The notes: generated by a model from the letters alone, not told the origin. Shown: positions 2,611 through 54,326, counted from the stretch's first letter. The stretch is 64,000 bases of DNA from an uncultured Chitinophagaceae bacterium (GCA_903895845.1 CAITVK010000050.1:4171-68170); one strand, 5' to 3'. Translations and numbers: made by a program.

Positions 2611-2810
2611 AAAACAATATTCTTTTTTGTAAAACGAATATTCTTTCTGGCAAGAAGGATATTCTTTTTGGTAAAAAGGATATTCTTTCTAGTTAAAAGG
2701 ATATTCTTTTTGGTAAGAAAGATATCCTTTCTAGTTAAACGAATATTCTTTTTGGTAAGAAAGATATCCTTTCTGGTAAAACGAATATTCCTTTTAGTAG
2801 AAAAAAAATA
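2611..2810. repeat. 21-bp tandem array A: 9 full units plus a partial one, consensus AaArGATATYCTTTYTrGTa
   Basis: The ATATTC/ATATCC core starts at 2617, 2638, 2659, 2680, 2701, 2722, 2743, 2764 and 2785, exactly 21 bp apart each time. Units alternate between ..ttttggta and ..ttctagtt, giving a 42-bp higher order. The core is near-palindromic (GAATATTC, AAGGATATCCTT-like). Confidence 0.9.
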
Positions 2811-2904
2811 CAATTTACCCTATTAACTCCTAGGGTATAGGCTTGGAAGGCTTTTTTTTTTCTTCTTATCACTCACAACTTACCCCTCATATTTCATAAC
2901 CATA

Positions 2905-2937
2905 ATGGTCAACAACCTTCAAAAGGTTGTTGACCAT
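2905..2937 (-). terminator. Hairpin downstream of the D-aminoacylase gene
   Basis: atggtcaacaacct / tcaaa / aggttgttgaccat forms a perfect 14-bp stem. It lies 37 nt past the stop at 2974 in the minus direction. Confidence 0.5.
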
Positions 2938-2973
2938 AGCAAAAGCTACCTATTTCCTATTAATCATTAAACA

Positions 2974-4536
2974 TTATCCCCCTCTCTTCACCGTCCTGCC
3001 ATTTCTGGCACCTGTGTGTTTGCCATCATTCATGGTCAGCTTTCCATTTACTATCACGTACTTAACCCCTACAGAATATTGGTGTGGGTTATCGAAAGTG
3101 GACATATCATTGATGGTCTTTTCATCAAATATGGTAATATCGGCATTGTATCCTTCGCTGAGTAAGCCAATATTTTTCAACTGAAACTTCTGTGCAGGCA
3201 AGCTTGTCATCCTACGGATAGCTTCCTCCAGGCCAATTACTTTTTGTTCCCGCACATACTTTCCTAGCACCCGCGCATTGGTACCATAAGACCGTGGATG
3301 TGGCACGCCCTCACCAATTACCCGGATGCCACCATCACTCGCAAACATATTAAACGGGTATTGCATAATCGCCTTCACATCCTCCTCACACATCCCATGA
3401 AAAACCATGCTGCTACCACCTGCACTCATCATATCCATCACCGTATTCGCTTCTGCCTCGGCGGTGTGTGGCTTACCCAGCATCGTGTTCACGTCTTCAA
3501 TGCTCTTTCCGTTGTAGCTTTTGTCGGCCTTATAATTGGCGACCACTGCATAGGAAAAATGTTCCAGTCCCCTCTTTTTCAAACCTTTCAGCATAAAGTT
3601 TAATATCCTTTTATGGTTATCAGGGTTTGCAAGTCTGGCAACTATACTATCCTGACCATCAGCCAATGCCCAGCTTGGCAACATAGTACCCAGATTGGTG
3701 CTACTGGCCGTGTAAGGATATTGGTCAATAGTGGCATCAATACCTTCTTCCCGTGCCTTTATTATCAAGGGGATGGTCTCTTTGCTACGTCCCCAGTTCT
3801 GTTCACCCACAACTTTGTAGTGCGAAATCTCTACCGGCATCTTTGCTTGGCGGGCAATGTCCAGCGCCTCATTGATAGCAATTACTACACTATCACCCTC
3901 ACTTCTGATGTGGCTGGTATAAACGCCATTGTACTTAGCAGCCGCTTTGGCAAGCCGCACAACCTCCTCCGTTTTACTGTAAGTGCCTGGTATATAAATG
4001 AGCCCCGTAGAAAAGCCGACAGCCCCATCCTGCATGGCTTTCTCAACAATCGCCTCCATTTTCTGCATCTCTTCTTCGGTGGGCAAGCGGTTGGCAGAAC
4101 CCATCACTGCCTTACGAACATCATTATGCCCCACCAATGAACCAATGTTGATAGACATCTTCAGGTTATTCAGATACTCGAAATATTTTTTGATATCCGT
4201 ATGCGATACGCCACAATTACCCGTGATAACGGTAGTAACGCCGTCGAAAATGAAGTTATTAGCCTGTGGATCTTTCTTCTCCAAATCTTCCATGTGGGTA
4301 TGCACATCAATGAATCCGGGGGATACAATCAATCCAGTTGCATCAATCGTCTTCCCCCCAGTCCAATTATCCAGATGCCCCTTCGCTACTATTTTGCCAT
4401 CCTTCACAGCAATATCACCCACTGTCCACGAGTTGCCCGTACCGTCAATAATCTTCCCGTTTTTAATAAGAATATCTGCTTGCTGTGCATGGGAAACAGT
4501 AACAACCAATAATAAGAGGTAAAAAAGTTTTTTCAT
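2974..4536 (-). CDS. N-acyl-D-amino-acid deacylase (D-aminoacylase) family amidohydrolase, secreted
   Basis: 520-aa ORF with a signal peptide (MKKLFYLLLLVVTVSHAQ). The N-terminus ILIKNGKIIDGTG...GFIDVHTHMED is typical of the metal-dependent amidohydrolase / D-aminoacylase family. Confidence 0.8.
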   Translation of the reverse strand: MKKLFYLLLLVVTVSHAQQADILIKNGKIIDGTGNSWTVGDIAVKDGKIVAKGHLDNWTGGKTIDATGLIVSPGFIDVHTHMEDLEKKDPQANNFIFDGVTTVITGNCGVSHTDIKKYFEYLNNLKMSINIGSLVGHNDVRKAVMGSANRLPTEEEMQKMEAIVEKAMQDGAVGFSTGLIYIPGTYSKTEEVVRLAKAAAKYNGVYTSHIRSEGDSVVIAINEALDIARQAKMPVEISHYKVVGEQNWGRSKETIPLIIKAREEGIDATIDQYPYTASSTNLGTMLPSWALADGQDSIVARLANPDNHKRILNFMLKGLKKRGLEHFSYAVVANYKADKSYNGKSIEDVNTMLGKPHTAEAEANTVMDMMSAGGSSMVFHGMCEEDVKAIMQYPFNMFASDGGIRVIGEGVPHPRSYGTNARVLGKYVREQKVIGLEEAIRRMTSLPAQKFQLKNIGLLSEGYNADITIFDEKTINDMSTFDNPHQYSVGVKYVIVNGKLTMNDGKHTGARNGRTVKRGG

Positions 4537-6622: not shown

Positions 6623-6650
6623 TTAATTGATAATTGTTAATTAATAATTA
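6623..6650. repeat. 4 x WTAATTR tandem heptamers
   Basis: ttaattg|ataattg|ttaatta|ataatta. The run spans the aroC stop codon and ends 6 nt upstream of the ykoF-like start. Confidence 0.65.
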
Positions 6651-7935: not shown

Positions 7936-8013
7936 ACAGAAACCCCTTGCGGGGATTATATTATTTAAAAAGAATGCTCAAATTTATGGTAGTGATTTAG
8001 AAGTAGCTGTTTA

Positions 8014-8244
8014 AATGTTCATTTATGCGGTGCAAATGCTTATTTATATCATTTAAATGTTCATTTATTCCGCATCCATGTTCATTTATATGGCTTGAAT
8101 GCTTATTTATGCGACATAAATGTTCATTTATTCCGCATCCATGTTCATTTATATGGCGTGAATGCTTATTTATGTGACATAAATGTTCATTTATTCCGCA
8201 TCCATGTTCATTTATGCGACGCGAATGACCATTTATTCTTGCTA
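8014..8244. repeat. 21-bp tandem array B: 11 units, core AATGYTYATTTAT, with a 63-bp higher-order repeat
   Basis: The ATG of the core starts at 8015, 8036, 8057, 8078, 8099, 8120, 8141, 8162, 8183, 8204 and 8225, all 21 bp apart. The three-unit block aaatgttcatttattccgcatccatgttcatttat... recurs at 8055, 8118 and 8181. Confidence 0.9.
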
Positions 8245-8271
8245 ATTAGGGTATATAAAACCAATACAAGT

Positions 8272-9576: not shown

Positions 9577-10596
9577 TTAAAATGCTTTAATTATTTGTTC
9601 AATTTCTTCAATAGGGATTTGTTTTATCACCCCTTTGCCAATCTTTTCCAGTAGGATATAATTGATAGAATTTCTTTCTCTTTTCTTATCCATTTTCAAA
9701 ACATCTAATACAGCTGTCTTATCAAACTCAATGTTGGTTGGAAGTCCATAGTTTCCAATCACCTCTTTTACTTCTTTAGTTTGTTTAAAGCCAAGTAATT
9801 GTTCTGAAATAATGGCAGCATAAGCAGTTCCTATTGCAACCGCCTGCCCATGATACAATTCATACTTGTTTTCTAAAGCATGACCTAGTGTATGACCAAG
9901 GTTCAATAACTTTCTATCCGCTTTTTCAAACTCATCTTTCTGTACAACCTTGGTTTTTAGTTTCGCATTGCGCTCTACCAACTCAGCCAAAAGTTTCTTA
10001 TCTTTCTTGAATGTCGCTAACTTATTCGCTTTTAAAAGCTTAAACATGGCTGCATCTTTAATACAAGCATGTTTAATAATTTCAGCAAAACCATTGCTCC
10101 AATCGGCGTCAGTCAATGTTTGCAAAAGGCTTACATCATACAATAAAAACTTAGGCTGACGGATAATACCTACCATGTTTTTATATAGTCCTACATCTAT
10201 ACCATTCTTGCCACCAATGCTAGCATCAACCATTGCCAATAAGGTAGTTGGCACAAAACCAAAGGCAATACCACGCATATAAACACTGGCAACATAGCCC
10301 GTCATATCCGTAATTACGCCACCACCGATACCAACTAAGGTTGTTTTTCTATCAGCTTGTAATTCTATTAACTGATTGATGATGCTATCAACAGTAGATT
10401 GATTCTTATGCTTTTCTCCCGATGGAACAACAATTGTTTTGAAACCCTTGAACTTTGCTTGGTGCAAGCCGTGAATAGTCTCATCGGTAATGATAATTGT
10501 ATTATCTACCTGAACAATCTCTTTCAGTTGTTTAATGGAAGCATCAAAGTAGTAATCAACAGAAGCAGTAGTAAATTTGAAAGTCTGTTTTTTCAT
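9577..10596 (-). CDS. aroB: 3-dehydroquinate synthase
   Basis: The ORF track gives 9577-10638; I prefer the ATG at 10596 (MKKQTFKF...). GGGVITDMTGYVAS and GHTLGHALE are motifs of the family. Confidence 0.85.
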   Translation of the reverse strand: MKKQTFKFTTASVDYYFDASIKQLKEIVQVDNTIIITDETIHGLHQAKFKGFKTIVVPSGEKHKNQSTVDSIINQLIELQADRKTTLVGIGGGVITDMTGYVASVYMRGIAFGFVPTTLLAMVDASIGGKNGIDVGLYKNMVGIIRQPKFLLYDVSLLQTLTDADWSNGFAEIIKHACIKDAAMFKLLKANKLATFKKDKKLLAELVERNAKLKTKVVQKDEFEKADRKLLNLGHTLGHALENKYELYHGQAVAIGTAYAAIISEQLLGFKQTKEVKEVIGNYGLPTNIEFDKTAVLDVLKMDKKRERNSINYILLEKIGKGVIKQIPIEEIEQIIKAF

Positions 10597-10674: not shown

Positions 10675-11769
10675 CTAGGAATTCATTATCTTATTCTGGT
10701 GATTGATGCTTTCCATGTGAACAGCATCGAAGTATTTAGTGATAAATTCTTTGCTTAGTCCTAGTTTATCACCTTTTGCGAAGGCACGCTCTAGGATTTC
10801 ATTCCAACGGTTAGTCTGCAAGATGGTAATATTATTTTCCTTCTTGTAGGTGCCAATTTTTTCAGCAACTTTAATACGTTGACCAAGAATCTGCATCAAT
10901 TCATCATCTAATTGATTAATTTGTTGACGTAATTTTTCCAATGCAGCATGATATTCTTCAGATGCCACGTCTTCTTTTCTCCAACGGATGTTACCAAGCA
11001 TTTCACCTAATCTCTCAGGAGTAACTTGTTGTTTGGCATCACTCCAAGCGTGATCCGGGTCAACATGACTTTCGATGATTAAACCATCAAAATCTAAGTC
11101 AATTGCTTTTTGTGCAACTTCTTGCAAAATATCACGACGACCACAGATATGTGAAGGATCATTGATAATCATCAATTCAGGGTAGCGACGTTTCATTTCA
11201 ATAGCCAGATGCCACATCGGTGCATTTCTGTATTCCGTGTTTCCGTAGCTGCTAAATCCTCTGTGTATCAAGCCTATTTGTTTAATACCGGCTTTTGCAA
11301 CTCTTTCAACTGCACCAATCCACAACTCTAAGTCAGGATTAATTGGATTCTTAATTAGTACAGGCACATCAACACCACGAAGTGCATCTGCAATTTCCTG
11401 TACGCTAAATGGATTAACAGTTGTTCTAGCACCCAACCAAAGGATGTCTACATCAAAATGCAGTGCATCTTCCACTTGTTTTGCTGTAGCTACTTCTACT
11501 GCAACTGGCAAACCTGTAATCTTTTTGGCTGCTTGCATCCAAGGCAATCCTTTTGTTCCAATTCCTTCAAAACTTCCAGGACGTGTACGTGGTTTCCAAA
11601 TACCAGCTCTCATAACATCTACTTTTCCAGTAGCAGCCAATCCAGTAGCTGTTGCTAATACTTGTTCTTCTGTTTCTGCGCTGCAAGGTCCGCTAATAAT
11701 TAACGGTCTTTTGCTCCATGCTTTTTGCGTAACCTCTTTCATTGTCGGGCTTGCAATAGTTGCTTCCAT
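10675..11769 (-). CDS. Bifunctional 3-deoxy-7-phosphoheptulonate (DAHP) synthase / chorismate mutase
   Basis: The ORF opens at GTG 11787; the first ATG is at 11769 (MEATIASP...). The KDO8PS-like type I-beta DAHPS core is followed by a C-terminal type II chorismate mutase helix bundle (LRQQINQLDDELMQILGQRIKVAEKIGTYK). Confidence 0.85.
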   Translation of the reverse strand: MEATIASPTMKEVTQKAWSKRPLIISGPCSAETEEQVLATATGLAATGKVDVMRAGIWKPRTRPGSFEGIGTKGLPWMQAAKKITGLPVAVEVATAKQVEDALHFDVDILWLGARTTVNPFSVQEIADALRGVDVPVLIKNPINPDLELWIGAVERVAKAGIKQIGLIHRGFSSYGNTEYRNAPMWHLAIEMKRRYPELMIINDPSHICGRRDILQEVAQKAIDLDFDGLIIESHVDPDHAWSDAKQQVTPERLGEMLGNIRWRKEDVASEEYHAALEKLRQQINQLDDELMQILGQRIKVAEKIGTYKKENNITILQTNRWNEILERAFAKGDKLGLSKEFITKYFDAVHMESINHQNKIMNS

Positions 11770-11887
11770 TTTTGTTGTTTTATTCACATAATGACGACTC
11801 CATCGGTCTAGAACATTATGCTACATGAGTGATAATAAGTACGTATTTATTGTTTCAGGTTCAGGTTACCTGCATCTTGTAACAGGG

Positions 11888-13588
11888 TTATCTGCTATTT
11901 GCATCATTCATTCTGATGCGTCTGCCTTTATAATTCTTGCCATCCAAACAACGAATCATCTGGTGAGCAGCTCCTTGTTCTACTTCAACCCAACTATTCA
12001 TGTCTTTCATATCTATCCTTCCAAGCACTTCTTTTTTCAAGTCGCTCATGTCTAGAATGAATTGCAAGAAACTAGCTTTATAAAAACCGTCTTTAGTCCC
12101 AAGGTTTACAAACAATCTAGCGTAACCTGATGCTGCGTTATTTCCTCCACCATAGCTACTTCTTTCTTGTCTTTCTCCTCTCGGTTCGAAACGAATCCGC
12201 TCACGACCACTATTTGCCCCTCTTTCATTGCCAAACTCACGTGATTTTTGTCTGCCGCCATCTCTCAGGTTGAGGTCTTCTGCATTTTCGTAGTATTTCA
12301 AGAATCTATCAAACTCTACCGCAGCCAATCTTTTCAAAATATCCTCCTTACTTACATCTGCAAATTTTTCTTCAAGCATTGGTAAGTAAGTATCGTAATC
12401 TCCATGAGATATATCGGTGTTCAACAATTTATCCATTACGGCGTAAAACTGTTTTCTACAAACGTCTTTGCCAGTAGGAATATCTACACGATTAAATGTA
12501 GATTGTATTAGTTTTTCTATTGCTTTTAACTTGAATGTTTCACGAGCGTGAACGATGCTCATACAGATACCCGTATTTCCAGCACGGCCGGTTCTACCAC
12601 TACGGTGTGTATAAACTTCGATATCATCAGGAAGTTCGTAATTGATTACGTGTGTAATTCCTTGTACATCAATACCACGTGCAGCTACGTCTGTAGCAAT
12701 TAGCAATTGTAATGTTTTATCGCGAAACTCGCCCATTACTTTATCACGTTGTGCCTGTGTTAAATCACCATGAAGAGCATCAATATCATAACCTTCACGG
12801 GTTAGCTTTTCAGCAATATCTTGCGCATCAACCTTAGTCCTTGTAAATATGATACCATATATGCCTGGATTAAAGTCTATCAAACGCTTTAAAGTTTCAT
12901 AACGATGTTGTGCAGAAGTGATGTAGTATTGGTGGTCTATATTTTTGTTGCCGCTGTTTACTTTGCCAACTGTTACCTCAAAAGGTTCGTTCATGTATTT
13001 CTTACTCACCTTTCTTATCTCTGGTGGCATGGTAGCACTGAATAACCAGGTACTTTCACGTTGTGGGGTATTTTGCAGGATGAATTCTATATCATCTTTA
13101 AAACCCATGTTCAACATTTCATCAGCCTCATCAAGCACTACATACTTAATCTGACCAAGATCAATTGCTTTTCTTTCAATCAAATCTATCAAACGGCCAG
13201 GAGTTGCAACAACAATCTGAACACCACGTTTCAAATCTCTAATTTGTAGGCCAATGCTTGCACCTCCATATACTGCTACAACAGAAACACCTTTAATATG
13301 TTTCTTAAAAAGCTCTACTTCATTCACTATTTGCATGCACAATTCCCTTGTAGGGCAAACAATCAATGCTTGTGGAAAACGATCTTCTGCATTTATAATA
13401 TGTAGTAGTGGCAAGCCAAATGCTGCCGTTTTTCCTGTTCCTGTTTGAGCAAGACCAATAAAGTCTTTAGTGCCTGAAAGCAATACTGGTATTGCCTTTT
13501 CTTGTATTTGTGTTGGGTTCACATACCCCAGTTCTGTAACGGCTTGTACAAGCCTCGCATCCAACCCCAACTCTTCAAAAGTTATCAT
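11888..13588 (-). CDS. deaD: DEAD-box ATP-dependent RNA helicase with a C-terminal DbpA-type RNA-binding domain
   Basis: 566-aa ORF with AQTGTGKT, DEAD (VLDEADEM), SAT and HRSGRTGRAG motifs, an RG-rich linker and a DbpA-like tail. Confidence 0.9.
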   Translation of the reverse strand: MITFEELGLDARLVQAVTELGYVNPTQIQEKAIPVLLSGTKDFIGLAQTGTGKTAAFGLPLLHIINAEDRFPQALIVCPTRELCMQIVNEVELFKKHIKGVSVVAVYGGASIGLQIRDLKRGVQIVVATPGRLIDLIERKAIDLGQIKYVVLDEADEMLNMGFKDDIEFILQNTPQRESTWLFSATMPPEIRKVSKKYMNEPFEVTVGKVNSGNKNIDHQYYITSAQHRYETLKRLIDFNPGIYGIIFTRTKVDAQDIAEKLTREGYDIDALHGDLTQAQRDKVMGEFRDKTLQLLIATDVAARGIDVQGITHVINYELPDDIEVYTHRSGRTGRAGNTGICMSIVHARETFKLKAIEKLIQSTFNRVDIPTGKDVCRKQFYAVMDKLLNTDISHGDYDTYLPMLEEKFADVSKEDILKRLAAVEFDRFLKYYENAEDLNLRDGGRQKSREFGNERGANSGRERIRFEPRGERQERSSYGGGNNAASGYARLFVNLGTKDGFYKASFLQFILDMSDLKKEVLGRIDMKDMNSWVEVEQGAAHQMIRCLDGKNYKGRRIRMNDANSR

Positions 13589-17768: not shown

Positions 17769-17988
17769 CATTATTCAAGCATTCCACGTCATTATTTATG
17801 TATTACGGATGATTATTCATGCATGATGCGTCATTATTCATGCTTGTTGCGAGACTATTCAAGCATTCCACGTGATTAATTAAGCATTACGGATGATTAT
17901 TTATGCTTGTTGCGTCATTATTTAAGCTTAAATAATGACGTGGAATGCTTAATTAATGACGTGGAATGCTTAAATAATGCGCTGTTGA
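17769..17988. repeat. 21-bp tandem array C: 8 direct units (core SATTATTYAWGC) followed by 3 inverted units
   Basis: The ATTATT-type core starts at 17770, 17791, 17812, 17833, 17854, 17875, 17896 and 17917. Inverted units (gcttaaWtaatgacgtggaat) start at 17926, 17947 and 17968. The junction is a perfect 28-bp palindrome (17913-17940) centred on AAGCTT. Confidence 0.9.
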
Positions 17989-29673: not shown

Positions 29674-30150
29674 TTAGTACTCAACTTTTGCATTGCTTTC
29701 CTGCCATAGTCGGAAAGCTTCCAATGCTTCCTCCCGCAACAATTGCTTTGTAAACAGTTTTCTTTCGCCCAATGGCAATGCTATTTCCTCATAAATAAAC
29801 TGGTCGTCGAACTGAATTGCCGCAGCATCTGCCTTGGTATTGGCATAAAATAAGCGGGCAGGTCTAGCCCAATAGATGGCGCCGAGGCACATGGGGCAGG
29901 GCTCGCAACTAGTGTAGAGGTCGCAGCCGTCTAACTGAAAAGTATCCAATATTTTGCACGCATTGCGGATAGCAACCACCTCGGCATGGGCAGTAGGGTC
30001 GTTGCTGCTGGTAACCTGATTTGCCCCGCGGGCTATTATTTTGCCATCTTTTACAATCACTGCACCAAAAGGTCCGCCTTTTCCCTCTGTTACATTTGTT
30101 ATAGAAAGGCGGATTGCCTCTTTCATAAACACTTCTTCCTCATTCGTCAT
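29674..30150 (-). CDS. guaD: CDA-fold nucleoside/guanine deaminase
   Basis: 158-aa ORF with HAEVVAI...CEPCPMC zinc motifs. It is the size of the B. subtilis GuaD type and sits in a purine-catabolic neighbourhood. Confidence 0.7.
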   Translation of the reverse strand: MTNEEEVFMKEAIRLSITNVTEGKGGPFGAVIVKDGKIIARGANQVTSSNDPTAHAEVVAIRNACKILDTFQLDGCDLYTSCEPCPMCLGAIYWARPARLFYANTKADAAAIQFDDQFIYEEIALPLGERKLFTKQLLREEALEAFRLWQESNAKVEY

Positions 30151-30446
30151 TTTATTCAGGTATTATTTGTTTGTCAATATTATTTCTGTTGTTTACTTAG
30201 TGGGTCTTCGTTTTATCCTACTGTAGATTAAATTAGCAATTTCTGCATTTTTTTCAAAATTAAGGCATTGAAGATAAATAAAATACAGATAATATGGTTT
30301 TTAAATATTAAAATTAGATAGCTGGCTGATTGATGGCAGATTCAGGATGAAATAATGCTAGCGGATACTATTGCCCAAACAACAACGGCTATTTTGAAGT
30401 ATTACCTCCAAAACAGCCGCTATTCTATGTTCATTTTCTATTTATT

Positions 30447-31115
30447 TTATAAAATAGATGTGTTTTCTATCGGGCCAAAAGCGCCATAACCAATGGTGTT
30501 TTTGCCACAAACCATCACATTTATTTCCTCATTCTTCACAAAGCCAGTCAGCTTTTTGTGCTTCACACTTCCTTGCACAATCATCACCGGGCAAGGGCTG
30601 CCAGTGGGAACCGTAATGGCATCGGCAGTAACTGTCAATGCAAAAGCTGGTCCTCTAAAAATTACAAATACATAATCTTTTGCGCCAGTAATTTCTGGAG
30701 CAATCAAATTTACATAACCACCCTTTTCCACTTCTACAGTAACGGCTGCACCTGCAGCAGGCACTATTGTGTCGTGCACAATATCTCCAGTAGTGGCATC
30801 AAAGCCGCCCCTATTGATGGTATCCTTCACACCATTTGCCACCCCACTCACATAATCGGCACTATCCCTCAGTATAGTATCCATCTCTATGCAAGCGGTG
30901 TCCAAAGCATTTTTAGCCAATTCGCCATTTTTCCTGTTCGAATACAACGTATCCAATGCCGTTCGTTTTGTTAAAATCAATGCACCAGCAAACGGAGGGG
31001 CAGGGAACAACAATGGATTTGTGCCATAGCCGCCACTCACTTTTAAGGCCCTTTCAGACATTACGGTTGGTTCGGACACTTTCCAATTGAGAAGCGGAAC
31101 GATTTCTTTTGACAT
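30447..31115 (-). CDS. Hypothetical protein (orphan to me)
   Basis: 222-aa ORF with coding-like composition and no signal peptide. The N-terminal half looks helical and the C-terminal half beta-rich. A terminator-like hairpin lies downstream at ~30385-30420. Confidence 0.55.
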   Translation of the reverse strand: MSKEIVPLLNWKVSEPTVMSERALKVSGGYGTNPLLFPAPPFAGALILTKRTALDTLYSNRKNGELAKNALDTACIEMDTILRDSADYVSGVANGVKDTINRGGFDATTGDIVHDTIVPAAGAAVTVEVEKGGYVNLIAPEITGAKDYVFVIFRGPAFALTVTADAITVPTGSPCPVMIVQGSVKHKKLTGFVKNEEINVMVCGKNTIGYGAFGPIENTSIL

Positions 31116-31272
31116 TTTAATGATTTAATTAATCAACTAACATTGTTGATTGGGTGAAAGTAGGTTAGTAATTAACTTTCCAAATTTATTATTATGCTTT
31201 TCTAGGGTTTCAGGTGTAAAATAAAATCTACTTGAGCCAGTATTACCCCTTTTATTGAAATAAACACTACTG

Positions 31273-31482
31273 TTTAAGAAATAAAAGAGCTAGTTTATAC
31301 TTTAGAATAGCTAATGGAAAGAATAAAAGAGCTCTTTTATTTCTAAAACCATCTCTCCGAAAGTTTTAATTAGCTAATTGAAACTTTAAATTAGCTAAAT
31401 AATGTTTTAAAATAGCTAATTGAAAGAATAAAAGAGCTCTTTTATTTCTTAAACTACCTAATTAATTCTTTAAACTAGCTAG
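31273..31482. repeat. 21-bp tandem array D: 10 units, core TTWAAnTAGCTAA / AAAGAGCTCTTT
   Basis: AGCTA/AGCTC-type cores start at 31288, 31309, 31330, (31351 degenerate), 31372, 31393, 31414, 31435, 31456 and 31477, all 21 bp apart. The 28-nt block gaaagaataaaagagctcttttatttct occurs twice, at 31317 and 31422 (105 bp = 5 units apart). It contains a perfect 20-bp palindrome. Confidence 0.85.
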
Positions 31483-31660
31483 TTTTTTTCGGTTTATGGG
31501 CAGCTTTGCGATGAACAACCCTTATAGGATTTGAAATCCTATAAGGGTTTGCAGTGGTGTTGGGTGTGGATTGAGGTGATGGACTTATTTTTGGAAAATA
31601 AAAAACTAGTGAGAAAAACACTAACAGACTTAAAGCAATTTAAAATTTTCAAATTAAATT

Positions 31661-32440
31661 ATGAAAAAGAAAATGAAACCTGAAAATATTACAATACCAA
31701 GTCATCCAGTTGGTATGCCTTTACATCGGAATAGATTTGACAAAACGATTTGGGAATCAAGAAATTTATCTAATTTGGGAGATATTTATATATCTCGATT
31801 AAATGAAATTATAGAAAAAGGGTATGAAATACTCACAAAACAAATAGCAGGGGGAGCCATTGTAGTTGATAATGAAGCTTCATTTCAACTTCAATTTGCG
31901 TACATTTTAAAAACTATTGGCGAGTTGTATAAGTTCAGTTCTGATGATTTGTTTACGATAGAATTAGAAAGTAAGTTTTCTTTTACCGAAGGATTACAGA
32001 AAAGTAAATCCAAAAATGCAAGAATTGATGTCATCTTAACACTTGGTGATTCAACAAATTATGCGACCGCTGCAATTGAATTAAAATTTTTTAAGGAAAA
32101 AAATCATAGAGAACCTAATAATAGATATGACGTTTTTTTAGACTTACATAATCTAGAGAATTATAAAAAAGGGAAATTATTTGACATCACTCTTTTTATA
32201 CTCGGCACCAATCATAGTCACTATGTAAACCAAAAAGATTACTCACCGTTGACTACTTGTTTTGATTTCAGGGATGGCGCCCAATATCTTGCGGGTACTT
32301 TGCTAGTATATGAAACAGATAAACCTTATGGTAACCCACTAAGACTTGAAAATAATTACAATTTCAAATGGGATGTCATTGAGAAAAAATTTAATAACAC
32401 GGATAATTCTAATTTGTATTTTCTAAAACTTAAAGTTTAG
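31661..32440 (+). CDS. Hypothetical protein with a PD-(D/E)xK nuclease-like motif
   Basis: 259-aa ORF. ...NARIDVILTLGDSTNYATAAIELKFFK... gives D-x19-E-x-K in a beta-strand-like context, with an upstream acidic residue (VDNEASFQLQF). No methyltransferase gene is adjacent. Confidence 0.5.
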   Translation: MKKKMKPENITIPSHPVGMPLHRNRFDKTIWESRNLSNLGDIYISRLNEIIEKGYEILTKQIAGGAIVVDNEASFQLQFAYILKTIGELYKFSSDDLFTIELESKFSFTEGLQKSKSKNARIDVILTLGDSTNYATAAIELKFFKEKNHREPNNRYDVFLDLHNLENYKKGKLFDITLFILGTNHSHYVNQKDYSPLTTCFDFRDGAQYLAGTLLVYETDKPYGNPLRLENNYNFKWDVIEKKFNNTDNSNLYFLKLKV

Positions 32441-32516
32441 GAATAAAAAAATATTTTAGAAGTCAAGATATGTATACCCATTCTTTTCTTTCTATCTTAA
32501 AATCAACAGAAATATA

Positions 32517-32705
32517 ATGAGCGATATAGTAGCAACAGAGAATACCTTTTGCTTTCCTGTTTGCAATAAATGCAAGCATCATTTAGGGGGAGATAAATGT
32601 TACGCATTTGACAAAATACCTAAGGAAATTCTAATGGGAGACAATATGCATAATAAAGTTTTGTTGGAACAAAAGAATGATATTGTTTTCGAAGAAAAAA
32701 AATAG
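32517..32705 (+). CDS. Small Cys4 (zinc-ribbon-like) protein
   Basis: 62-aa ORF with C-x4-C-x2-C-x9-C (CFPVCNKCKHHLGGDKC). Whether it is coding is uncertain. Confidence 0.35.
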   Translation: MSDIVATENTFCFPVCNKCKHHLGGDKCYAFDKIPKEILMGDNMHNKVLLEQKNDIVFEEKK

Positions 32706-32868
32706 AACACATCTAGCTCAAGTCTTTCAGAAAATCATGATTTGGCGCAAAACCTATGGCTTGTGCCTAGCTGTTACTAAGTTTTATAAAACTTCATAAA
32801 ACAAATGAATCCGCCTCTTTAAACTTAATAAACCTACTTTTACAGAAATAATAATTATGGTAATCAAC

Positions 32869-33141
32869 ATGTCAGACATACAACTCTTCCAAATCTTAAA
32901 ACAAAAGATGGGCGAACAAGAGGCAGAGGCGTTGGTAACCTTTGTAGACCACAAGATAAAAGAAAACAACGAATTCAATTTGAATATACTTGCTACAAAA
33001 GCTGATATTCATGATTTGAAAGGCAACCTTGAGGTAAAAATAGCAGACTCAAAAGCAGAAATGATTAAATGGATGTTTATCTTTTGGATAGGTCAAGTAG
33101 CTGTTACAGTTGGTTTTCTAGTGGTTTATTTAAAAAAGTAA
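32869..33141 (+). CDS. DUF1640-like coiled-coil protein with a C-terminal TM helix
   Basis: The ORF opens at 32857; MSDIQLF at 32869 is an alternative start. LATKADIHDLKGNLEVKIADSKAEMIKWMFIFWIGQVAV resembles DUF1640-type proteins. Confidence 0.5.
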   Translation: MSDIQLFQILKQKMGEQEAEALVTFVDHKIKENNEFNLNILATKADIHDLKGNLEVKIADSKAEMIKWMFIFWIGQVAVTVGFLVVYLKK

Positions 33142-33166
33142 AAAGATATTGAAGCATAAAAAGTAG

Positions 33167-33192
33167 AGACGGATATTAATCCGTCTTTTTTT
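33167..33192 (+). terminator. Rho-independent terminator
   Basis: agacggat / atta / atccgtct followed by a T-run. Confidence 0.7.
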
Positions 33193-33261
33193 ATTGCAGA
33201 AAAGACCTTCGAATACGATTACTTAATAAATCTACCTAAATTTGGTTACAAGAAATTTTTT

Positions 33262-33495
33262 ATGAACGGAAGAATAATAAATATAGACCCAGAAATATTA
33301 GGAGGCACACCTGTTTTCTTTGGAACAAGGGTACCCATCAAAAACCTTTTTGATTATTTGGAAAGTGGCGATTCGATAGAAATATTTTTGGAAGACTTTG
33401 AAGGTGTCAGCAAAAACCAAGTAATAAAAGTATTGGAGATGTCGCAAAAACTAATTGAAACATCCTCAAATATTCTCCATGAAAATTTTGCTTGA
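33262..33495 (+). CDS. DUF433 antitoxin-like protein
   Basis: 77-aa ORF. IDPEILGGTPVFFGTRVPIKNLFDYLESGDSIEIFLEDF is the DUF433 pattern. Confidence 0.75.
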   Translation: MNGRIINIDPEILGGTPVFFGTRVPIKNLFDYLESGDSIEIFLEDFEGVSKNQVIKVLEMSQKLIETSSNILHENFA

Positions 33496-33805
33496 TGAAT
33501 GTGTTACCAAACGTTTGAAAAAACATTTGCCTTCTTTTGAAGTGTTTACAGTAAGGGAACTTGGATTGGGCGGAATTAAAAACGGCAAACTGATGGCTTA
33601 TTGCGTGGACAATGATTTTGAAATACTGCTGACGATTGACAAAAACCTTATGTTCCAACAAAACCTAGAAAAATATCCTGTTTCTATAGTTGTTCTAAAT
33701 TGTGTAACTAGCAAAATAGAAGAATTGATAGACTTTATTCCTAGTTTCCTAGTTCAAATTATAGAATTCAAGAAACACAATGCCTATCTAGTCAATAAAG
33801 ATTAA
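33479..33805 (+). CDS. DUF5615 (PIN-like) toxin-like protein
   Basis: The ORF track starts at 33455; I prefer ATG 33479 (MKILLDECV), which overlaps the DUF433 stop by 17 nt in typical TA fashion. Confidence 0.7.
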   Translation: MKILLDECVTKRLKKHLPSFEVFTVRELGLGGIKNGKLMAYCVDNDFEILLTIDKNLMFQQNLEKYPVSIVVLNCVTSKIEELIDFIPSFLVQIIEFKKHNAYLVNKD

Positions 33806-35069: not shown

Positions 35070-35100
35070 GAAGATGTAAATCACAAACTGCAATTGCCTT

Positions 35101-35135
35101 AACTCATCACTCATAATTTATAACTCATAACTAAC
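35101..35135. repeat. 5 x AACTCAT-type tandem heptamers abutting the start codon
   Basis: aactcat|cactcat|aatttat|aactcat|aactaac, then ATG 35136. This is the same heptamer family as at 1196-1223 when read in gene orientation. Confidence 0.7.
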
Positions 35136-36449
35136 ATGCTGACTGCTTCCAAGAAAGTAATAACGGGCTGGGCTATGTACGATTGGGCCAACAGTGCCTA
35201 CAATCTGGTCATTACTTCTACTATTTTTCCAGCTTATTACGATGCCATCACAACCGTAAAAGATGCGGCGGGTAATGTGCTTTCCCACAAAGTAACGTTT
35301 CTGGGAAGCGAGTATGAGAGTGCTTCGTTGTACAATTATGCCATTGCATTTGCTTATCTGTTGATTGCACTCTTGTCCCCAATTCTATCTTCCATTGCAG
35401 ATTTCAAGGGAAATAAGAAGTCTTTCATGCAATTCTTTTGTTACCTCGGAAGCTTGGCTTGCTGCCTGATGTATTGGTTTACAAAGGATACACTCACACT
35501 AGGAATAGCTTGCGCCGTGATTGCCGCCGTAGGCTATTGTGGAAGTCTCGTTTTTTATAATGCCTACTTACCAGAGATAGCTGCCGAAGAAGACCAGGAT
35601 GATGTGAGTGCCAAAGGGTTTGCTTATGGATATATAGGTAGTGTATTACTACAGATTATCTGTTTCTTTTTTGTATTAAAGCCAGAATGGTTTGGTATAA
35701 CAGATGGCACTTTCCCAGCAAGATTATCTTTTTTATTGGTAGGATTGTGGTGGGCAGCATTTGCACAAATAACTTTTGCCACATTGCCTAAGAGTATTGC
35801 GACAGGCGTGTTAAAACAAGGAAACATAATAACCAATGGCTTTATTGAGTTGAAGAAAGTATGGCAACAAGCAGGACAACTTCCTGTATTGAAACGGTAT
35901 TTGATTGCTTTCTTCTTTTATAGCATGGGTGTACAAACGGTGATGCTTGCTGCAACACTTTTTGGTAGTCAGGTATTGCAGATGGCAACCAGTAAATTGA
36001 TTATCTGCATATTATTAATACAAATAGTAGCCATTGCGGGAGCTTATTTAATGGCAAAACTCTCTGATAGGTTTGGTAATTTTAATGTATTGGCGTTTGT
36101 TGTTTTATTATGGACAGCACTCTGTGTAGCCGCTTATTTTGTAACCAATGAAATGCAGTTTTATATACTAGCCTCTATTGTAGGATTGATAATGGGCGGA
36201 ATACAATCATTAAGTCGTTCAACTTATGCCAAGATAATGCCCGAGGGAACACACGACACAGCCTCCTTCTTTAGTTTTTATGATGTTACAGAAAAAGTAG
36301 CAATTGTAATTGGGATGGTAAGCTTTGGATTAGTGCAACAACTAACAGGAAACATGAGGAACTCGATACTGGCCTTGGTATTATTTTTCGTGATTGGTTT
36401 TATCGCTTTGTTGTTTACAATAAAGGAGCAGAAGAAAGGGGTAAATTGA
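35136..36449 (+). CDS. MFS transporter, UMF1/Atg22-like family
   Basis: 437-aa ORF with the GWAMYDWANSAYNLVITSTIFPAYY N-terminus and about 12 TM segments. Confidence 0.8.
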   Translation: MLTASKKVITGWAMYDWANSAYNLVITSTIFPAYYDAITTVKDAAGNVLSHKVTFLGSEYESASLYNYAIAFAYLLIALLSPILSSIADFKGNKKSFMQFFCYLGSLACCLMYWFTKDTLTLGIACAVIAAVGYCGSLVFYNAYLPEIAAEEDQDDVSAKGFAYGYIGSVLLQIICFFFVLKPEWFGITDGTFPARLSFLLVGLWWAAFAQITFATLPKSIATGVLKQGNIITNGFIELKKVWQQAGQLPVLKRYLIAFFFYSMGVQTVMLAATLFGSQVLQMATSKLIICILLIQIVAIAGAYLMAKLSDRFGNFNVLAFVVLLWTALCVAAYFVTNEMQFYILASIVGLIMGGIQSLSRSTYAKIMPEGTHDTASFFSFYDVTEKVAIVIGMVSFGLVQQLTGNMRNSILALVLFFVIGFIALLFTIKEQKKGVN

Positions 36450-38384: not shown

Positions 38385-38478
38385 AAGTCTTAAGCTGTAA
38401 GTCATAAGTCGTAAGTAAAAGGAGGCTTTGGCTAATTGCTTCCGGCTTACAACTTACTACTTATGACTTACAACTCTT
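38385..38478. repeat. Inverted pair of heptamer runs: 5 x AAGYNNT (38385-38419) and 5 x NRCTTAY (38444-38478)
   Basis: aagtctt|aagctgt|aagtcat|aagtcgt|aagtaaa ... ggcttac|aacttac|tacttat|gacttac|aactctt. The arms are about 23 bp complementary with 2 mismatches. The maf ATG (38463) lies inside the right arm. Confidence 0.7.
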
Positions 38479-39053
38479 CTCTGATTCTTGCTTCACAGTC
38501 GCCACGTAGAAAACAATTGTTGGAATGGGCAGAAGTCCCTTTTTACATTATCGTTAAAAGTACCGATGAAAGTTATCCTCCAGACTTGCCTATTTCAGAA
38601 GTACCTGTCTTTATAGCACGCGAAAAAGCAATTGGTGTACAGAAACATATAGCAGATGATTATCCTGAACATATTGGTAAAACAATACTTGCAGCTGATA
38701 CTGTTGTGGTTTTGGATAACTTAGTTATCGGTAAACCAACTGATAGGGATGATGCCATCAGGATACTGAAAGCATTGGCAGGAAGGAGACACGCTGTTAT
38801 TACGGGTGTTGTTTTATTGACCGGGAAAATAGAAATAGCTTTCGCTGATACGACTTATGTTACCTTTCATCCGCTTACAGAGGATGAAATTGTGTTTTAT
38901 GTAGATAAATATAAACCCTACGATAAGGCTGGTGCCTATGCAATACAAGAATGGATTGGTGTGGTGGGCATCAAAGCAATAGAGGGAGACTTTTATAATG
39001 TAATGGGGCTTCCGGTGAGCAGGGTAGTGAGAGAATTGATAATTGACAACTGA
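38463..39053 (+). CDS. maf: Maf-family nucleoside triphosphate pyrophosphatase
   Basis: The ORF track starts at 38436; I prefer ATG 38463 (MTYNSSLILASQSPRRKQLL). ADTVV and GAYAIQE motifs are present. Confidence 0.85.
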   Translation: MTYNSSLILASQSPRRKQLLEWAEVPFYIIVKSTDESYPPDLPISEVPVFIAREKAIGVQKHIADDYPEHIGKTILAADTVVVLDNLVIGKPTDRDDAIRILKALAGRRHAVITGVVLLTGKIEIAFADTTYVTFHPLTEDEIVFYVDKYKPYDKAGAYAIQEWIGVVGIKAIEGDFYNVMGLPVSRVVRELIIDN

Positions 39054-39063
39054 TAATTATGTT

Positions 39064-46353: not shown

Positions 46354-46379
46354 AAGAAATTTATTGAAATAAATTAGCT

Positions 46380-46631
46380 AATAAATAAAATAAACAGACC
46401 TGTTTAAAGAATAAACACATGAATAAATAAAATAAACAGACCTGTTTAAAGTATAAACAGATGAATAAATAAAATAAACACATCTGTTTAAAGAATAAAC
46501 ACATGAATAAATAAAATAAACACATCTGTTTAAAGAATAAACACATGAATAAATAAAATAAACGCATCTGTTTAAAGAATAAACACATGAATAAATAAAA
46601 TAAAAAGACCTGTTTAAAGGATAAACAGAGT
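46380..46631. repeat. 21-bp tandem array E: 12 units (6 x 42 bp), aataaataaaataaacagacc|tgtttaaagaataaacacatg
   Basis: ATAAACA starts at 46390, 46411, 46432, 46453, 46474, 46495, 46516, 46537, 46558, 46579, 46600 and 46621, all 21 bp apart. The dyad AAACAG-ac-CTGTTT / AAACAC-at-CTGTTT recurs every 42 bp. Confidence 0.9.
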
Positions 46632-46784
46632 AAATAATTCATAAAATATAGCTTGTTCATGGCGATGGCAGATGCATAATCTGATCCAAATGGCTACTTA
46701 TTTGCCCTACATGAACGGTTTTTTAATTCACAGTCATAGCGGCTTGCCATCAAGTTTTTTTTATTAACCGCAAAATGAAACATT

Positions 46785-51757: not shown

Positions 51758-51874
51758 TTCATTCATAAAATAATTACAATGCCTGACAGTAGATGATTAT
51801 GATTACTGTTGGGCATTGTGATACTTAAACACTAAAACTTTTCTCTAACTTTTTTAAACAAAAATTGCTCTATT

Positions 51875-52978
51875 ATGAAAAAATTGTTATGCTCAGTTGT
51901 TCTAGGTTGTTCCTGTCTTGGTTTGGCAAATGCACAGACCGCAAAAGACACTTCTCTTCAGGTTTCTGGTTCTGGTGATGTTTATTATCGTTATGATCTT
52001 GCTCAAAGTAAGACAACAATCCCTAGTCAGGATGCTTTGGGAACCAAACAAAACTCTATCGACTTTGGTATGCTCGATTTGCGTGTGAAAAAAGACTTTG
52101 GCAAAGCTTCTGTCTTTTCGGAGCTTGCTTTTGGTGCGCGTGCGGCCTCTACCATCGACAATAATGGCTCTTCTCCATTGTCTTATTACCTTCAGAATCT
52201 TTATTTTTCTTATCAAGTAGATAAAAAATTAGCCCTTTCTGCTGGTATCATGTATCGTTACGATATGTACGAAAAGTTAACTCCGGCTGACAACTTTAGT
52301 TATCTGGCTTCGAATGCTTTTCTGGAGTCTAGGAAGATTCCTACCAGAAGTGTGGGCATAAAAGCAAATTACGCTTTCTCTGATATGGTTACATTGTCTC
52401 TTGGCTTATTCAATTCTATTGATGCTACCAATCTTAACAGTGCCGATGCCGTGGCTAGTAATCCCAATTATGGACTGTCTGATGTAGTGGCTCAGCTATT
52501 TGTGAACCCCACCAAAGACCTGAACCTGAGTGCAGCCGTTTGGAAAGAAGGGCAAAGCAATAAGGGCACGCACGAAAACCTGCAAGTGCATTATCATGTG
52601 GCAAAGGGTTTGAAACTGGGACTAGATTTTAATAATTACACAGGAAGTGACAGTACTACACAAGCTGCCAATGCCTTTAATAATTTTACCAGTGTGGCTT
52701 TATATGCACAAAAATCATTCACAAAAATGTTCTCTTTGGGTGCACGAATTGAGCATGAACAAACCCAACAAAATACCATTACAAAATCTTTTGTGAATGA
52801 AAATTACAACATCATCACCCTCACAGGTAAGGAAAAGTTAGGCGGCATCTCTTTGAAAGAAGAAATAAAATATGATATGACAGATAATAGCAATCTCAAC
52901 ACACCTTATCTAGACAAAAACGGTGCTGCTACCAACAAAGACATTCAGTTTGTTTTGGCAGCCATCTTCTCTTTCTAG
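51875..52978 (+). CDS. Outer-membrane beta-barrel porin (OmpL/bbp2-like)
   Basis: 367-aa ORF with a signal peptide and a terminal ...AAIFSF. It is a paralogue of the next gene. Confidence 0.65.
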   Translation: MKKLLCSVVLGCSCLGLANAQTAKDTSLQVSGSGDVYYRYDLAQSKTTIPSQDALGTKQNSIDFGMLDLRVKKDFGKASVFSELAFGARAASTIDNNGSSPLSYYLQNLYFSYQVDKKLALSAGIMYRYDMYEKLTPADNFSYLASNAFLESRKIPTRSVGIKANYAFSDMVTLSLGLFNSIDATNLNSADAVASNPNYGLSDVVAQLFVNPTKDLNLSAAVWKEGQSNKGTHENLQVHYHVAKGLKLGLDFNNYTGSDSTTQAANAFNNFTSVALYAQKSFTKMFSLGARIEHEQTQQNTITKSFVNENYNIITLTGKEKLGGISLKEEIKYDMTDNSNLNTPYLDKNGAATNKDIQFVLAAIFSF

Positions 52979-53029
52979 TAATTGTTGGTTGGTTCTATCT
53001 ATTTTTTCTTCAAGTAATAAATGTTTTTT

Positions 53030-54118
53030 ATGAAAAAAAGTCTGTCGTTTATATTCCTATCTGTTGTTTTTGTGGGTGCGCTGAATGCCCAGAAGCATCA
53101 TAAAGATTCATCTACACTCAAGATATCCGGCTCTGCCGATATTTATTATAAGTACGACTTTGCACAAAGTCAAACCAATATCCCTTCGCAAGATATTCTG
53201 GGTACTAAACAAAATTCTTTGGATTTTGGTGTATTCGACCTCAAGATTCAGAAGGGTTATGGCAAGGCTACCTTTTTTACCGATCTGGCTTTTGGCCCTC
53301 GTCCAGACGTGAAGCCTGTGGATCCTCAAAATTCTTATCACCTGCAAAACCTATACATTTCTTATCAGCTAAACAAAAAACTATCTTTTGCTGCTGGAGC
53401 AATGTATAAGTATCAAAGTTTTGAGAAGATAACCCCCGTTGATAATTTTAACTATTCCATGTCTAAATCTTGGGAGCAAAACTTCCTCACCAACCCAAGG
53501 GCAGCTGGCGTGAAAGCTACTTACATCTTTTCGGATAAAGTGAGCCTTACCGCTGGCTTTTACAACACCATAGACCCCAAGGCACCGGCAGACAATGTAT
53601 CGTCTACCCCCTCTTATGGCGTGTCGGACTTTGTTACACAATTATTTGTGAATCCGACAAAGGATTTGCAATTGAGTGCTGCTTACTGGCGTGAAGCCCA
53701 AACTGTAAACGGGTCGCATACCAATTTTCAAGCACGTTATCAGTTAAATAAAAGATTGAAACTCGGCTTGGATTTCACTAGGTACAAAGCAGATACATTG
53801 GCAGCGGTAAACTCGTACACAAGTGCGGTATTGTATGCGCAAGAAAAGTTGAACAACGTATTTACAATCGGTGGAAGATATGAGTACATGGACAAGACCG
53901 AAGCTCCAAATGGCATCAATACGTTTACTTATCTGCCAGGTTATTATAGTATTCTTACGCTGACGCTGAACGAAAAGCTGGGGCCAATTGCTTTGAAAGA
54001 AGAAGTGAAGTTTGATCAAACAAATAAGGGCAACCTGAATACAGTTTATCTGGATAAGGATGCAAAGCCTACGGACAAGGCCACGCAGTTGGTGATTGCA
54101 GCAGTATTTTCTTTCTAG
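53030..54118 (+). CDS. Outer-membrane beta-barrel porin, tandem paralogue
   Basis: The ORF opens at ATG 53021; MKKSLSFIF at 53030 gives a cleaner signal peptide. It is collinear with 51875-52978 (SGSGDVYYRYDLAQSKTTIPSQDALGTKQNSIDFG / SGSADIYYKYDFAQSQTNIPSQDILGTKQNSLDFG) and ends ...AAVFSF. Confidence 0.65.
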   Translation: MKKSLSFIFLSVVFVGALNAQKHHKDSSTLKISGSADIYYKYDFAQSQTNIPSQDILGTKQNSLDFGVFDLKIQKGYGKATFFTDLAFGPRPDVKPVDPQNSYHLQNLYISYQLNKKLSFAAGAMYKYQSFEKITPVDNFNYSMSKSWEQNFLTNPRAAGVKATYIFSDKVSLTAGFYNTIDPKAPADNVSSTPSYGVSDFVTQLFVNPTKDLQLSAAYWREAQTVNGSHTNFQARYQLNKRLKLGLDFTRYKADTLAAVNSYTSAVLYAQEKLNNVFTIGGRYEYMDKTEAPNGINTFTYLPGYYSILTLTLNEKLGPIALKEEVKFDQTNKGNLNTVYLDKDAKPTDKATQLVIAAVFSF

Positions 54119-54158
54119 CTAAAAAGAAAAGGGTAAGCTTAAAATACAAGTGTTCTTT

Positions 54159-54326
54159 GTTTGTGGTGTTAACACCAAACTTTGTGGTGTCAGCACCAAT
54201 GTTTAGGGTGCTAGCACCATGCTTTGTGGTGTTAACACCAAACTTTAGGGTGATAACACCAAACTTTAGGGTGCTAACACCAAATCTTATGGTGTTGACA
54301 CCAATGTTTGTGGTGCTAACACCATA
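54159..54326. repeat. 21-bp tandem array F: 8 units, TTTrkGGTGyTArCACCAAay
   Basis: GGTG starts at 54164, 54185, 54206, 54227, 54248, 54269, 54290 and 54311, all 21 bp apart. Each unit holds a 12-bp dyad (GGTGTTAACACC is perfect in units 1 and 4). Confidence 0.9.

Follow-up and report, generated by a model that had tools for sequence, protein, structure and literature searches.

What could hold one repeat period, exactly 21 bp, in arrays whose units are almost entirely unrelated in sequence? The question is raised by a 64,000-nucleotide stretch of DNA from an uncultured Chitinophagaceae bacterium (GCA_903895845.1 CAITVK010000050.1:4171-68170, referred to here as the window), in which a first-pass annotation had pointed out six intergenic head-to-tail arrays, A to F, spaced at exactly 21 bp. 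In a clade of freshwater Chitinophagaceae, the arrays are non-coding minisatellites, or variable-number tandem repeats (VNTRs); as in that class, head-to-tail units within the 10-100-bp range lie in non-coding DNA and copy number differs by whole units. What they have in common is a unit that is strictly 21 bp, or a multiple of that (21n), and that tends to include a short dyad. We favour, with a probability of about 0.4, the reading that they are in-situ minisatellites under a sequence-independent rule of two helical turns, which would make phased, one-faced DNA.

A 21-bp register in arrays of different sequence

Tandem Repeats Finder (TRF) returned 51 rows over the whole window, and every array longer than ~60 bp was one of the loci A-F. 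The 21-bp register was exact in all six, whether judged by TRF, by stacking in rows of 21 or by lag-autocorrelation, and the stacked rows gave 9, 11, 8+3, 10, 12 and 8 units for A to F, confirming the loci, spacing and counts first annotated. An independent lag-autocorrelation scan recovered the same six loci and no others, with signal at 21n lags alone. The window held no further array of at least 100 bp and, with the six masked, no residual hidden or degenerate 21-bp signal. Higher orders of 42, 63, 84 and 105 bp are present within the arrays. The 63-bp order of B matched at 88% (TRF), and array E was called by TRF at 46380-46627 as 5.9 copies of period 42, with 94% match and 0 indels. Array D, the most degenerate of the six, has a 105-bp order, visible in the palindrome AAAAGAGCTCTTTT, which stands at 31325 and again at 31430, and the units of array F, which has a 63-bp order, combine conserved TGGTG/CACCA arms with a variable centre and linker.

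The units are unrelated from array to array, with the exception of D and E. No array-to-array or flank-to-flank cross-matches were found beyond a 13-mer common to these two, the best cyclic identity among units stood at the level of shuffled controls, indicating no residual homology, and the core motifs were confined to their own arrays, with no other occurrence in ~200 kb of clade DNA. Arrays D and E have in common the 13-mer TTATTGAAATAAA and the motifs TTAGCTAAT and AAACAnnnCTGTTT, and an exact copy of the 13-mer and a D-type core, both at the left edge of E, show the two arrays to be partly related. The 13-mer was not found in other species and is limited to one. The proposal that unit sequences are wholly different among arrays therefore stands in general and fails for this pair.

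The same period recurs in relatives. The aroC product of the window matches those of the uncultured freshwater Chitinophagaceae genomes L001-L003 (94-97% identity; ~85% nucleotide identity to the window), and the nearest named genus by this product is Parasediminibacterium, at 86%. The clade DNA surveyed, ~202 kb, came from a Joint Genome Institute (JGI) metagenome contig (L087), the one close relative that a scan of the JGI metagenomes brought up, from exact-protein look-ups and from a look-up with the gene beside array D; the exact-protein look-ups, its main source, consisted of pckA and homologues at 79-99% identity. All sequences are short-read metagenome assemblies. Sister species add eight 21n loci, whose units are unrelated to the window arrays and to one another; the array of L170 at the site orthologous to E was counted with E and not among the eight.

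Inside the clade, 14 of 15 independent arrays are 21n (binomial P ~5e-9 at p = 0.21), and the sole non-21n array of at least 100 bp in the ~202 kb, common to L001 and L002, has a period of 41 bp. Outside it, 2.32 Mb of DNA was taken from Bacteroidota at a greater distance, and the periods of arrays called non-coding there range between 6 and 133 bp; 21n accounts for 9 of 42, and most of these nine look like Ala-rich coding repeats. Arrays are also ~5x rarer there, at ~1 per 55 kb against ~1 per 10-15 kb inside the clade. An excess of 21n periods, which the first-pass annotation had named as support for its claim, is present in the clade DNA surveyed, and its suggestion of one genome-level process or rule with a 21-bp step is backed by the eight further loci with unrelated units and by the whole-unit copy changes described below.

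The arrays of Parasediminibacterium have periods of 11, 22 and 33 bp, which are also near helical multiples. In the isolate Parasediminibacterium sp. JCM 36343 an 11-bp motif, TCACTCACAAA, and its complement are arrayed at L005 8965-9064 and L178 210-307 with 22- and 33-bp higher orders, and a separate 22-bp array lies at L005 8510-8581; hence the neighbouring genus runs 11n periods rather than 21n.

Table 1. Positions, structure and surroundings of the tandem arrays and associated features in the window and in related sequences.
Feature	Sequence	Position	Strand	Structure	Context
Array A	window	2611..2804	.	~9 x 21 bp, consensus AAAAGAATATTCTTTTTGGTA, palindromic core AAAGRATATYCTTT; TRF period 21/42/63	197 bp upstream of WG-repeat gene start (2414, minus); downstream of amidohydrolase gene
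Array B	window	8011..8241	.	11 x 21 bp, core AATGYTYATTTAT; TRF 8011-8238, period 21/42/63	aroA-aroC spacer; ~30 bp past aroA stop, 76 bp ahead of aroC start
Array C, direct part	window	17769..17926	.	~8 x 21 bp, CATTATTCAAGCATTACGCGT, 84-bp higher order; TRF 17769-17929, 21/42/84	between LytTR regulator gene (stop 18369) and satP (start 17297)
Array C, inverted part	window	17927..17979	.	~2.6 units, reverse orientation; TRF 17926-17979, 21 x 2.6	as for direct part
13-mer TTATTGAAATAAA	window	31252..31264	+	exact copy at E left edge	left edge of D; E-like AAACAnnnCTGTTT motif next
Array D	window	31273..31482	.	~10 degenerate 21-bp units, GCTAATTnAAAnTTTAAAATA; TRF 31359-31481, period 21	divergent spacer, 30447-31115 (minus) / 31661-32440 (plus)
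13-mer TTATTGAAATAAA	window	46361..46373	+		left edge of E; D-type core TTAGCTAAT next
Array E	window	46380..46631	.	6 x 42 bp (12 x 21), palindrome TAAACAnnnnTGTTTA	start 27 bp past LTD-domain gene stop; end 154 bp ahead of pckA start
Array F	window	54160..54326	.	8 x 21 bp, TTTGTGGTGTTAACACCAAAC; TRF 54160-54324, period 21/63	start 41 bp past BBP2 gene stop; end 258 bp ahead of T9SS-sorted protein gene
Array in relative	L087	9249-9522		13 x 21 bp	upstream of DEAD-box helicase gene
Array in relative	L001	3258-3397		3.3 x 42 bp	spacer as in L087, sequence unrelated
Array in relative	L002	1-156		7.4 x 21 bp	contig end
Array in relative	L170/L171	9605-9813		10 x 21 bp	site orthologous to E
Array in relative	L170	17191-17240		2.4 x 21 bp	site orthologous to F, sequence unrelated
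Array in relative	L172-L175	411-578		8-10 x 21 bp	upstream of 235-aa gene
Array in relative	L172	about 11713-11943		21/42/63 bp	just past pckA
Array in relative	L179	5648-5878		11 x 21 bp	between convergent genes
Array in relative	L182/L183	5161-5328		8 x 21 bp	between co-directional genes

The flanking genes encode a WG-repeat protein, a chorismate synthase fused to DUF952, SatP/YaaH, PEPCK and a Por_Secre_tail protein, as had been assigned earlier (the fusion being an addition). Placement upstream of a start codon, likewise noted before, holds in the window and breaks down in relatives, where L179 carries an array in a convergent spacer and L172 one just past pckA.

The cumulative GC-skew minimum of the window lies at ~30000-33500, close to 31 kb, and gene strand flips from mostly minus to mostly plus at the spacer of array D. 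The region at 32-34 kb has 31% G+C and small toxin-antitoxin-like genes (DUF433/DUF5615). A replication origin at array D was rejected because DnaA boxes occur at chance level and because skew tracks gene strand elsewhere.

Turnover of the arrays in place

Among the window arrays, copy number was compared within species for D, E and F. Strains that are 99.2-100% identical differ in array length by whole units (+42, +63 and +168 bp). L172 and L173, 99.2-99.8% identical elsewhere, are separated by a 42-bp indel (2 units; 8 vs 10) and a 63-bp indel (3 units), both in register and inside arrays, the remaining indels being of 4 and 5 bp only; orthologous spacers thus vary between strains by whole units, the outcome of a comparison that the first-pass annotation had called for. 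L081 shows no mismatch to the window over 21.8 kb, yet has 2 rather than 6 units of 42 bp in E, which may reflect real variation or assembly collapse; its F array is identical to that of the window. Array D is identical across three independent assemblies. In L083/L084, a strain with the same pckA protein, the unit of the E array has changed.

Across species, the E site holds 10 units of 21 bp with altered palindrome arms in the sister species L170, one degenerate unit, a relic, in L172, and none in L179. The B array is absent in L002 and L003, where the aroA-aroC spacer measures 70 bp and contains one unit-like sequence, AATGTTCAAATTAAT. The F site of L170 carries 2.4 units of an unrelated 21-mer. 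Occupancy of the same site recurs across species at the pckA upstream spacer, the helicase upstream spacer and the F site.

Within array C, a direct and an inverted block meet head-to-head at 17926/17927 with a perfect junction, which marks a fold-back or template-switch event. Taken together, the comparisons show that arrays expand, contract, invert and disappear in place, and that each is built in situ from its own local sequence. Growth and shrinkage proceed by whole units or by blocks of 2-8 units, as slipped-strand mispairing or unequal exchange predicts, and occasional template switching also shapes the arrays. Decayed relics are few; turnover therefore runs through gain and loss and not through decay by point mutation.

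Three of the spacers concerned show further features. The aroA-aroC spacer (window 7936-8271; also L001-L006, L041 and L042) is an insertion hotspot within the aromatic amino-acid gene cluster: it contains array B in the window, is near-empty in L002/L003, and holds a two-gene toxin-antitoxin-like cassette in L001/L004, the 11- and 22-bp arrays in L005 and heptamer arrays in L041/L042. Directly upstream of pckA, ~150 bp (46632-46784) are conserved in the window, L083, L170 and L172, and the sequence farther upstream turns over; this block has a long-range inverted repeat, GTTCATGG...CATGAAC, with a T-run after it, gave no Rfam match, and could be the terminator of the upstream gene or a leader or regulatory element of pckA. 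The helicase upstream spacer, which has 21n arrays in L001 and L087, contains in L004 (~3300-3650) a sequence resembling bacterial RNase P RNA (GGAGGAAAGTCTGGAC...).

The period might instead be an inheritance. One ancient, dispersed 21-bp minisatellite, perhaps carried by a vehicle akin to a MITE (miniature inverted-repeat transposable element), would have lost its sequence to concerted evolution within loci and drift between them, its period being kept by unequal exchange. The BrickBuilt repeats offer a Bacteroidota precedent (PMC4596501), the elements common to D and E could be traces of such an ancestor, and at the E site the window array and the L170 array have diverged widely, yet both are at 21 bp. 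Moreover, loss of similarity is to be expected, since unconstrained spacers of these species are already saturated and unalignable. We nevertheless consider an inherited period improbable. The 15 arrays have no leader or tail in common, and in their flanks neither terminal inverted repeats nor target duplications rise above shuffled controls; unit similarity does not rise above the shuffled level, the 13-mer is confined to one species, occupancy is patchy with single-unit states in otherwise conserved spacers, and the density of arrays would demand a very large ancient burst.

An origin in the assemblies or in a gene product was also weighed, the arrays being then a short-read assembly artefact, a 7-residue peptide repeat or RNA hairpins arrayed in untranslated regions. 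Seven codons make 21 nt, a number that is also a common k-mer size in assemblers; gene callers place open reading frames (ORFs) over several arrays, many contigs break at arrays and several stop inside them. Furthermore, B, E and F start 27-41 bp past a stop codon and may be transcribed, and two assemblies that are otherwise identical have E in different copy numbers. Against this, the many substitutions among units and the higher orders are not the output of a graph cycle, and independent assemblies made from different samples agree exactly on both D and F. Open frames show no enrichment over shuffled units (53 vs 50.7 expected), six-frame translations are not protein-like, and every frame is stopped in D and, on the plus strand, in E; the palindrome variants of L170 are not compensatory, no Rfam family matches, and a function as RNA could do without a period of exactly 21 nt. 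Such an origin is the least probable of the explanations and very unlikely.

ORFs of 72-119 aa reported by gene callers and in ORF lists are open frames through arrays (L087 9199-9558; L172 369-587 and 11662-11988; L173 318-578 and 11662-11925), and their lengths change with array copy number. In public annotations they are probably false genes, called across arrays because 21 bp is 7 codons.

What could set the period

Whatever imposes the 21-bp rule must be blind to sequence, given that the units are numerous, mutually unrelated and soon replaced. The smallest whole number of base pairs that gives whole helical turns is 21 (2 x 10.5). In the reading we favour, the rule would be set by the geometry of the double helix, and the 11-, 22- and 33-bp periods of the neighbouring genus would fall into the same scheme. 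Only repetition at 21n would place all units on one face and sum small bends in one plane, at any copy number. An array would then be a piece of curved, one-faced architectural DNA of 170-270 bp, in spacers at gene boundaries, which a non-specific nucleoid protein might coat cooperatively or which might pin supercoils; its length, and hence its effect on neighbouring genes, would differ between strains.

A wedge model gave an in-phase bend of 10-44 degrees per 21 bp for every array. Phased bent DNA, also proposed in the first-pass annotation, is weakly sustained, in that any 21-bp array sums its unit bends in phase. Several points weigh against the helical rule. The real units were no more curved than shuffled ones, with P <= 0.02 in just 2 of 13, and no internal 10.5-bp A/T (W/S) phasing was seen in them, so the bending itself shows no sign of optimisation. 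A pure rule of helical phase should also permit periods of 10, 11, 31 and 32 bp, none of which occurs in the clade. Finally, the census covers ~200 kb, less than a whole genome, and consists throughout of short-read metagenome assemblies, for which 21 is also a common smallest k-mer.

Since the units are no more curved than shuffles and the 10-, 11-, 31- and 32-bp periods are absent, a mutational ruler is almost as likely, doubtful though we hold it to be: an activity specific to the lineage, in replication, repair or recombination, or else a lattice of protein on the DNA, would duplicate any local DNA in 21-bp steps, births being favoured near short palindromes, and the arrays would be neutral by-products that expand and collapse. 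Density and period are both clade-specific, and the young array of 2.4 copies in L170 (17191-17240) is already at 21 bp. Likewise, arrays occur in any kind of spacer, convergent ones included, decayed relics are few, and neither curvature nor phasing is optimised. The enrichment of palindromes and the fold-back junction of array C would point to replication prone to template switching or hairpins. On the other side, we know of no enzyme or process that produces 21-bp duplications, and the same spacers (pckA, helicase and F site) are reused across species, which speaks for persistence or preference over birth at random. In some arrays, moreover, the arms are more conserved than the linkers.

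Stated more broadly, we would entertain, tentatively and with rather less conviction than the helical rule, that the clade has a sequence-independent ruler of either kind: a protein or process that duplicates 21 bp, or a reader at the level of the nucleoid that selects two-turn phased arrays. Were this so, the arrays would form a new class of bacterial chromosomal element, with hundreds per genome, each unique in sequence and defined by period only.

Short inverted repeats are enriched overall (Fisher combined P ~1e-6). The dyad is individually clear in A and F, in the L170 array, the 42-mer of L001, the second array of L172 and the 105-bp order of D; it is borderline in E (P = 0.07) and absent from B, C and the D consensus, so that a dyad in most units, as first described, holds for part of the set and does not hold for B and C. 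In the palindromic arrays the arms vary less than the centre and linker (0.10/0.25 in F, 0.08/0.42 in L170 and 0.10/0.30 in L002; pooled odds ratio 0.73, P = 0.004). The variants that break the palindrome in L170 units are not compensated, which argues against selection for hairpin stems of RNA or DNA.

Such units invite comparison with operators, and the first-pass annotation had proposed multimerised platforms for different dimeric DNA-binding proteins. Each array would be the platform of its own regulator, of the LytTR, AraC/XylS-type or dimeric helix-turn-helix kind, the last sitting on palindromes spaced by two turns. Many units are indeed operator-like, with arms of 5-8 bp ~10 bp apart from centre to centre, and in F, L170 and L002 these arms are the better conserved part. 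LytTR direct repeats lie 12 bp apart (PMC6193735), a LytTR gene adjoins array C, and a phage contig repeats a classical GGTG...CACC palindrome ~22 bp apart. We nonetheless regard operator arrays as very unlikely, because of their density, private cores, loss or replacement between species and placement in convergent or downstream spacers. The density implies hundreds of distinct arrays per genome and hundreds of cognate proteins; the cores are absent elsewhere in the ~200 kb of clade DNA; and arrays are lost, replaced or reduced to a single unit between sister species whose proteins are 90-97% identical. The helicase gene has a conserved -7-like box, TACTTTTG, ~22 bp from its ATG, and the arrays, 76-560 bp from start codons, lie well upstream of this likely promoter position, some of them in convergent or downstream spacers. 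With 8-13 copies they far exceed the two sites typical of these regulator families, and no regulator gene stands beside five of the six window arrays.

The phage contig, L184 from IMG/VR, has the palindrome GGTGGTGTCTGCACCACC four times at 9808-9920, three of the copies ~21-24 bp apart. It turned up by chance through a pattern shaped after array F, has no relation to the window, and looks like an ordinary phage operator cluster.

Were the rule to hold genome-wide, the clade would offer a natural experiment on how helix geometry or a ruler shapes the birth and survival of repeats in bacteria. Such a rule could bring to light an architectural element of DNA, or a mutational mechanism, that is new, and would explain a major source of strain-level indels in an abundant freshwater lineage. 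In practice, the arrays break short-read assemblies at gene boundaries and prompt false ORFs, and they would serve as high-resolution strain markers.

The arrays among known repeat systems

The exclusions made at first pass were upheld. The arrays are not CRISPR, as their units are contiguous with no unique spacers; not a REP/BIME/REPIN or MITE family, as there are no cross-matches and unit similarity is at shuffle level, the 13-mer of D and E being the sole exception; and, by the frame tests, not coding. Other candidates were rejected as well. Repeats of the mycobacterial interspersed repetitive unit (MIRU) type, in which small ORFs inside the units overlap the stop and start codons of the neighbouring genes and couple their translation, are not supported, array B having neither an in-frame start codon nor a tie to the aroA or aroC frames, and open frames showing no excess. 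No Rfam family and no tRNA was found in the window. Promoter arrays are disfavoured by units that lack, by eye, the Bacteroidetes -7 motif TAnnTTTG and by sigma-70-like matches at or below chance. Searches for a plasmid or phage origin gave no BLAST match, 72,556 plasmid records included. A literature search did not find the 21-bp rule described, and the earlier statement that no described element class fits is borne out.

Plasmid iterons and centromere repeats of the ParR/omega type are contiguous direct repeats of ~20-22 bp that present one helix face and are bound cooperatively. They lie at a plasmid origin or partition locus beside the respective rep or par gene, each replicon having one type of array, and an origin with iterons also has an AT-rich unwinding element and DnaA boxes. 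Unlike these, the window arrays are chromosomal, among housekeeping or surface-protein genes, with no rep or par gene and with DnaA boxes that are unclustered and at chance level, and iterons were rejected on these grounds.

If a LytTR repeat is 9 bp long, a 12-bp spacer gives a 21-bp period, and the arrays then resemble LytTR operators in repeat distance, and array C in having a LytTR gene next to it. However, LytTR sites normally comprise two repeats, ~10 bp upstream of the -35 box (PMC6193735), whereas the arrays have 8-13 copies, are often palindromic, lie far from likely promoters and are not conserved between species.

Heptamer repeats of the TAACTGA class, known from Beggiatoaceae, Cyanobacteria and Bacteroidetes, have 7-nt units a few nt before start codons (PMC4679880). 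They are similar to the arrays in being lineage-specific intergenic tandem repeats with whole-unit indels, and dissimilar in that the 21-mers have no 7-bp sub-period and lie farther from genes; triple heptamers were rejected on a lag-7 self-similarity of z = 0.5 and the lack of a period-7 harmonic. Separate heptamer direct repeats resembling this class (TAACTCA, TAAGTCA, CTTACAA and others) occur in the window at 6624-6649, 35100-35132, 38385-38416, 38446-38475 and 39034-39058, and in relatives, with up to 30 copies, at L016 11430-11639, L041 9943-10002, L042 9826-9999 and L118 3746-3872. Several end a few bases before a start codon, as at 35100-35132, 4 nt before the ATG at 35136, and some stand right before aroC.

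A preprint on helical-repeat-matched minisatellites of C. elegans proposes that they act as mechanical insulators (bioRxiv 10.64898/2026.08.08.743475). They are like the present arrays in that the period matches the helical repeat and a physical property, not the sequence, is proposed to matter; they differ in having 10-bp units, in belonging to eukaryotic chromatin and in forming a single Helitron-derived family.

BrickBuilt of Porphyromonas gingivalis is MITE-borne; its 23-nt units follow one another in tandem with no spacer between them, and its 19 occurrences per genome, variable in copy number, are all intergenic, 49-591 nt from genes (PMC4596501). It shares with the arrays a Bacteroidota host, spacerless units of about two helical turns, intergenic position and variable copy number. 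The arrays, at 21 bp, have no unit sequence, flanks, terminal inverted repeats or target duplications in common, whereas BrickBuilt forms one family whose members all have the same leader, tail and inverted-repeat ends.

The closest kinship is with the bacterial VNTRs or minisatellites used in multiple-locus VNTR analysis (MLVA) typing, for which PMC9426551 cites the review by Zhou, Aertsen and Michiels (2014). The arrays agree with them in their head-to-tail intergenic repeats, whole-unit differences between strains, higher orders and growth by slippage or unequal exchange. They depart from them in two respects: bacterial VNTRs vary in unit length within one genome, whereas here nearly every long array is at 21 bp across the clade, and the density is unusually high. 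In none of the closest described systems does a single fixed period run through a clade while the sequences are unrelated. The arrays are minisatellites, a known kind, and there is a real chance that their cause is new.

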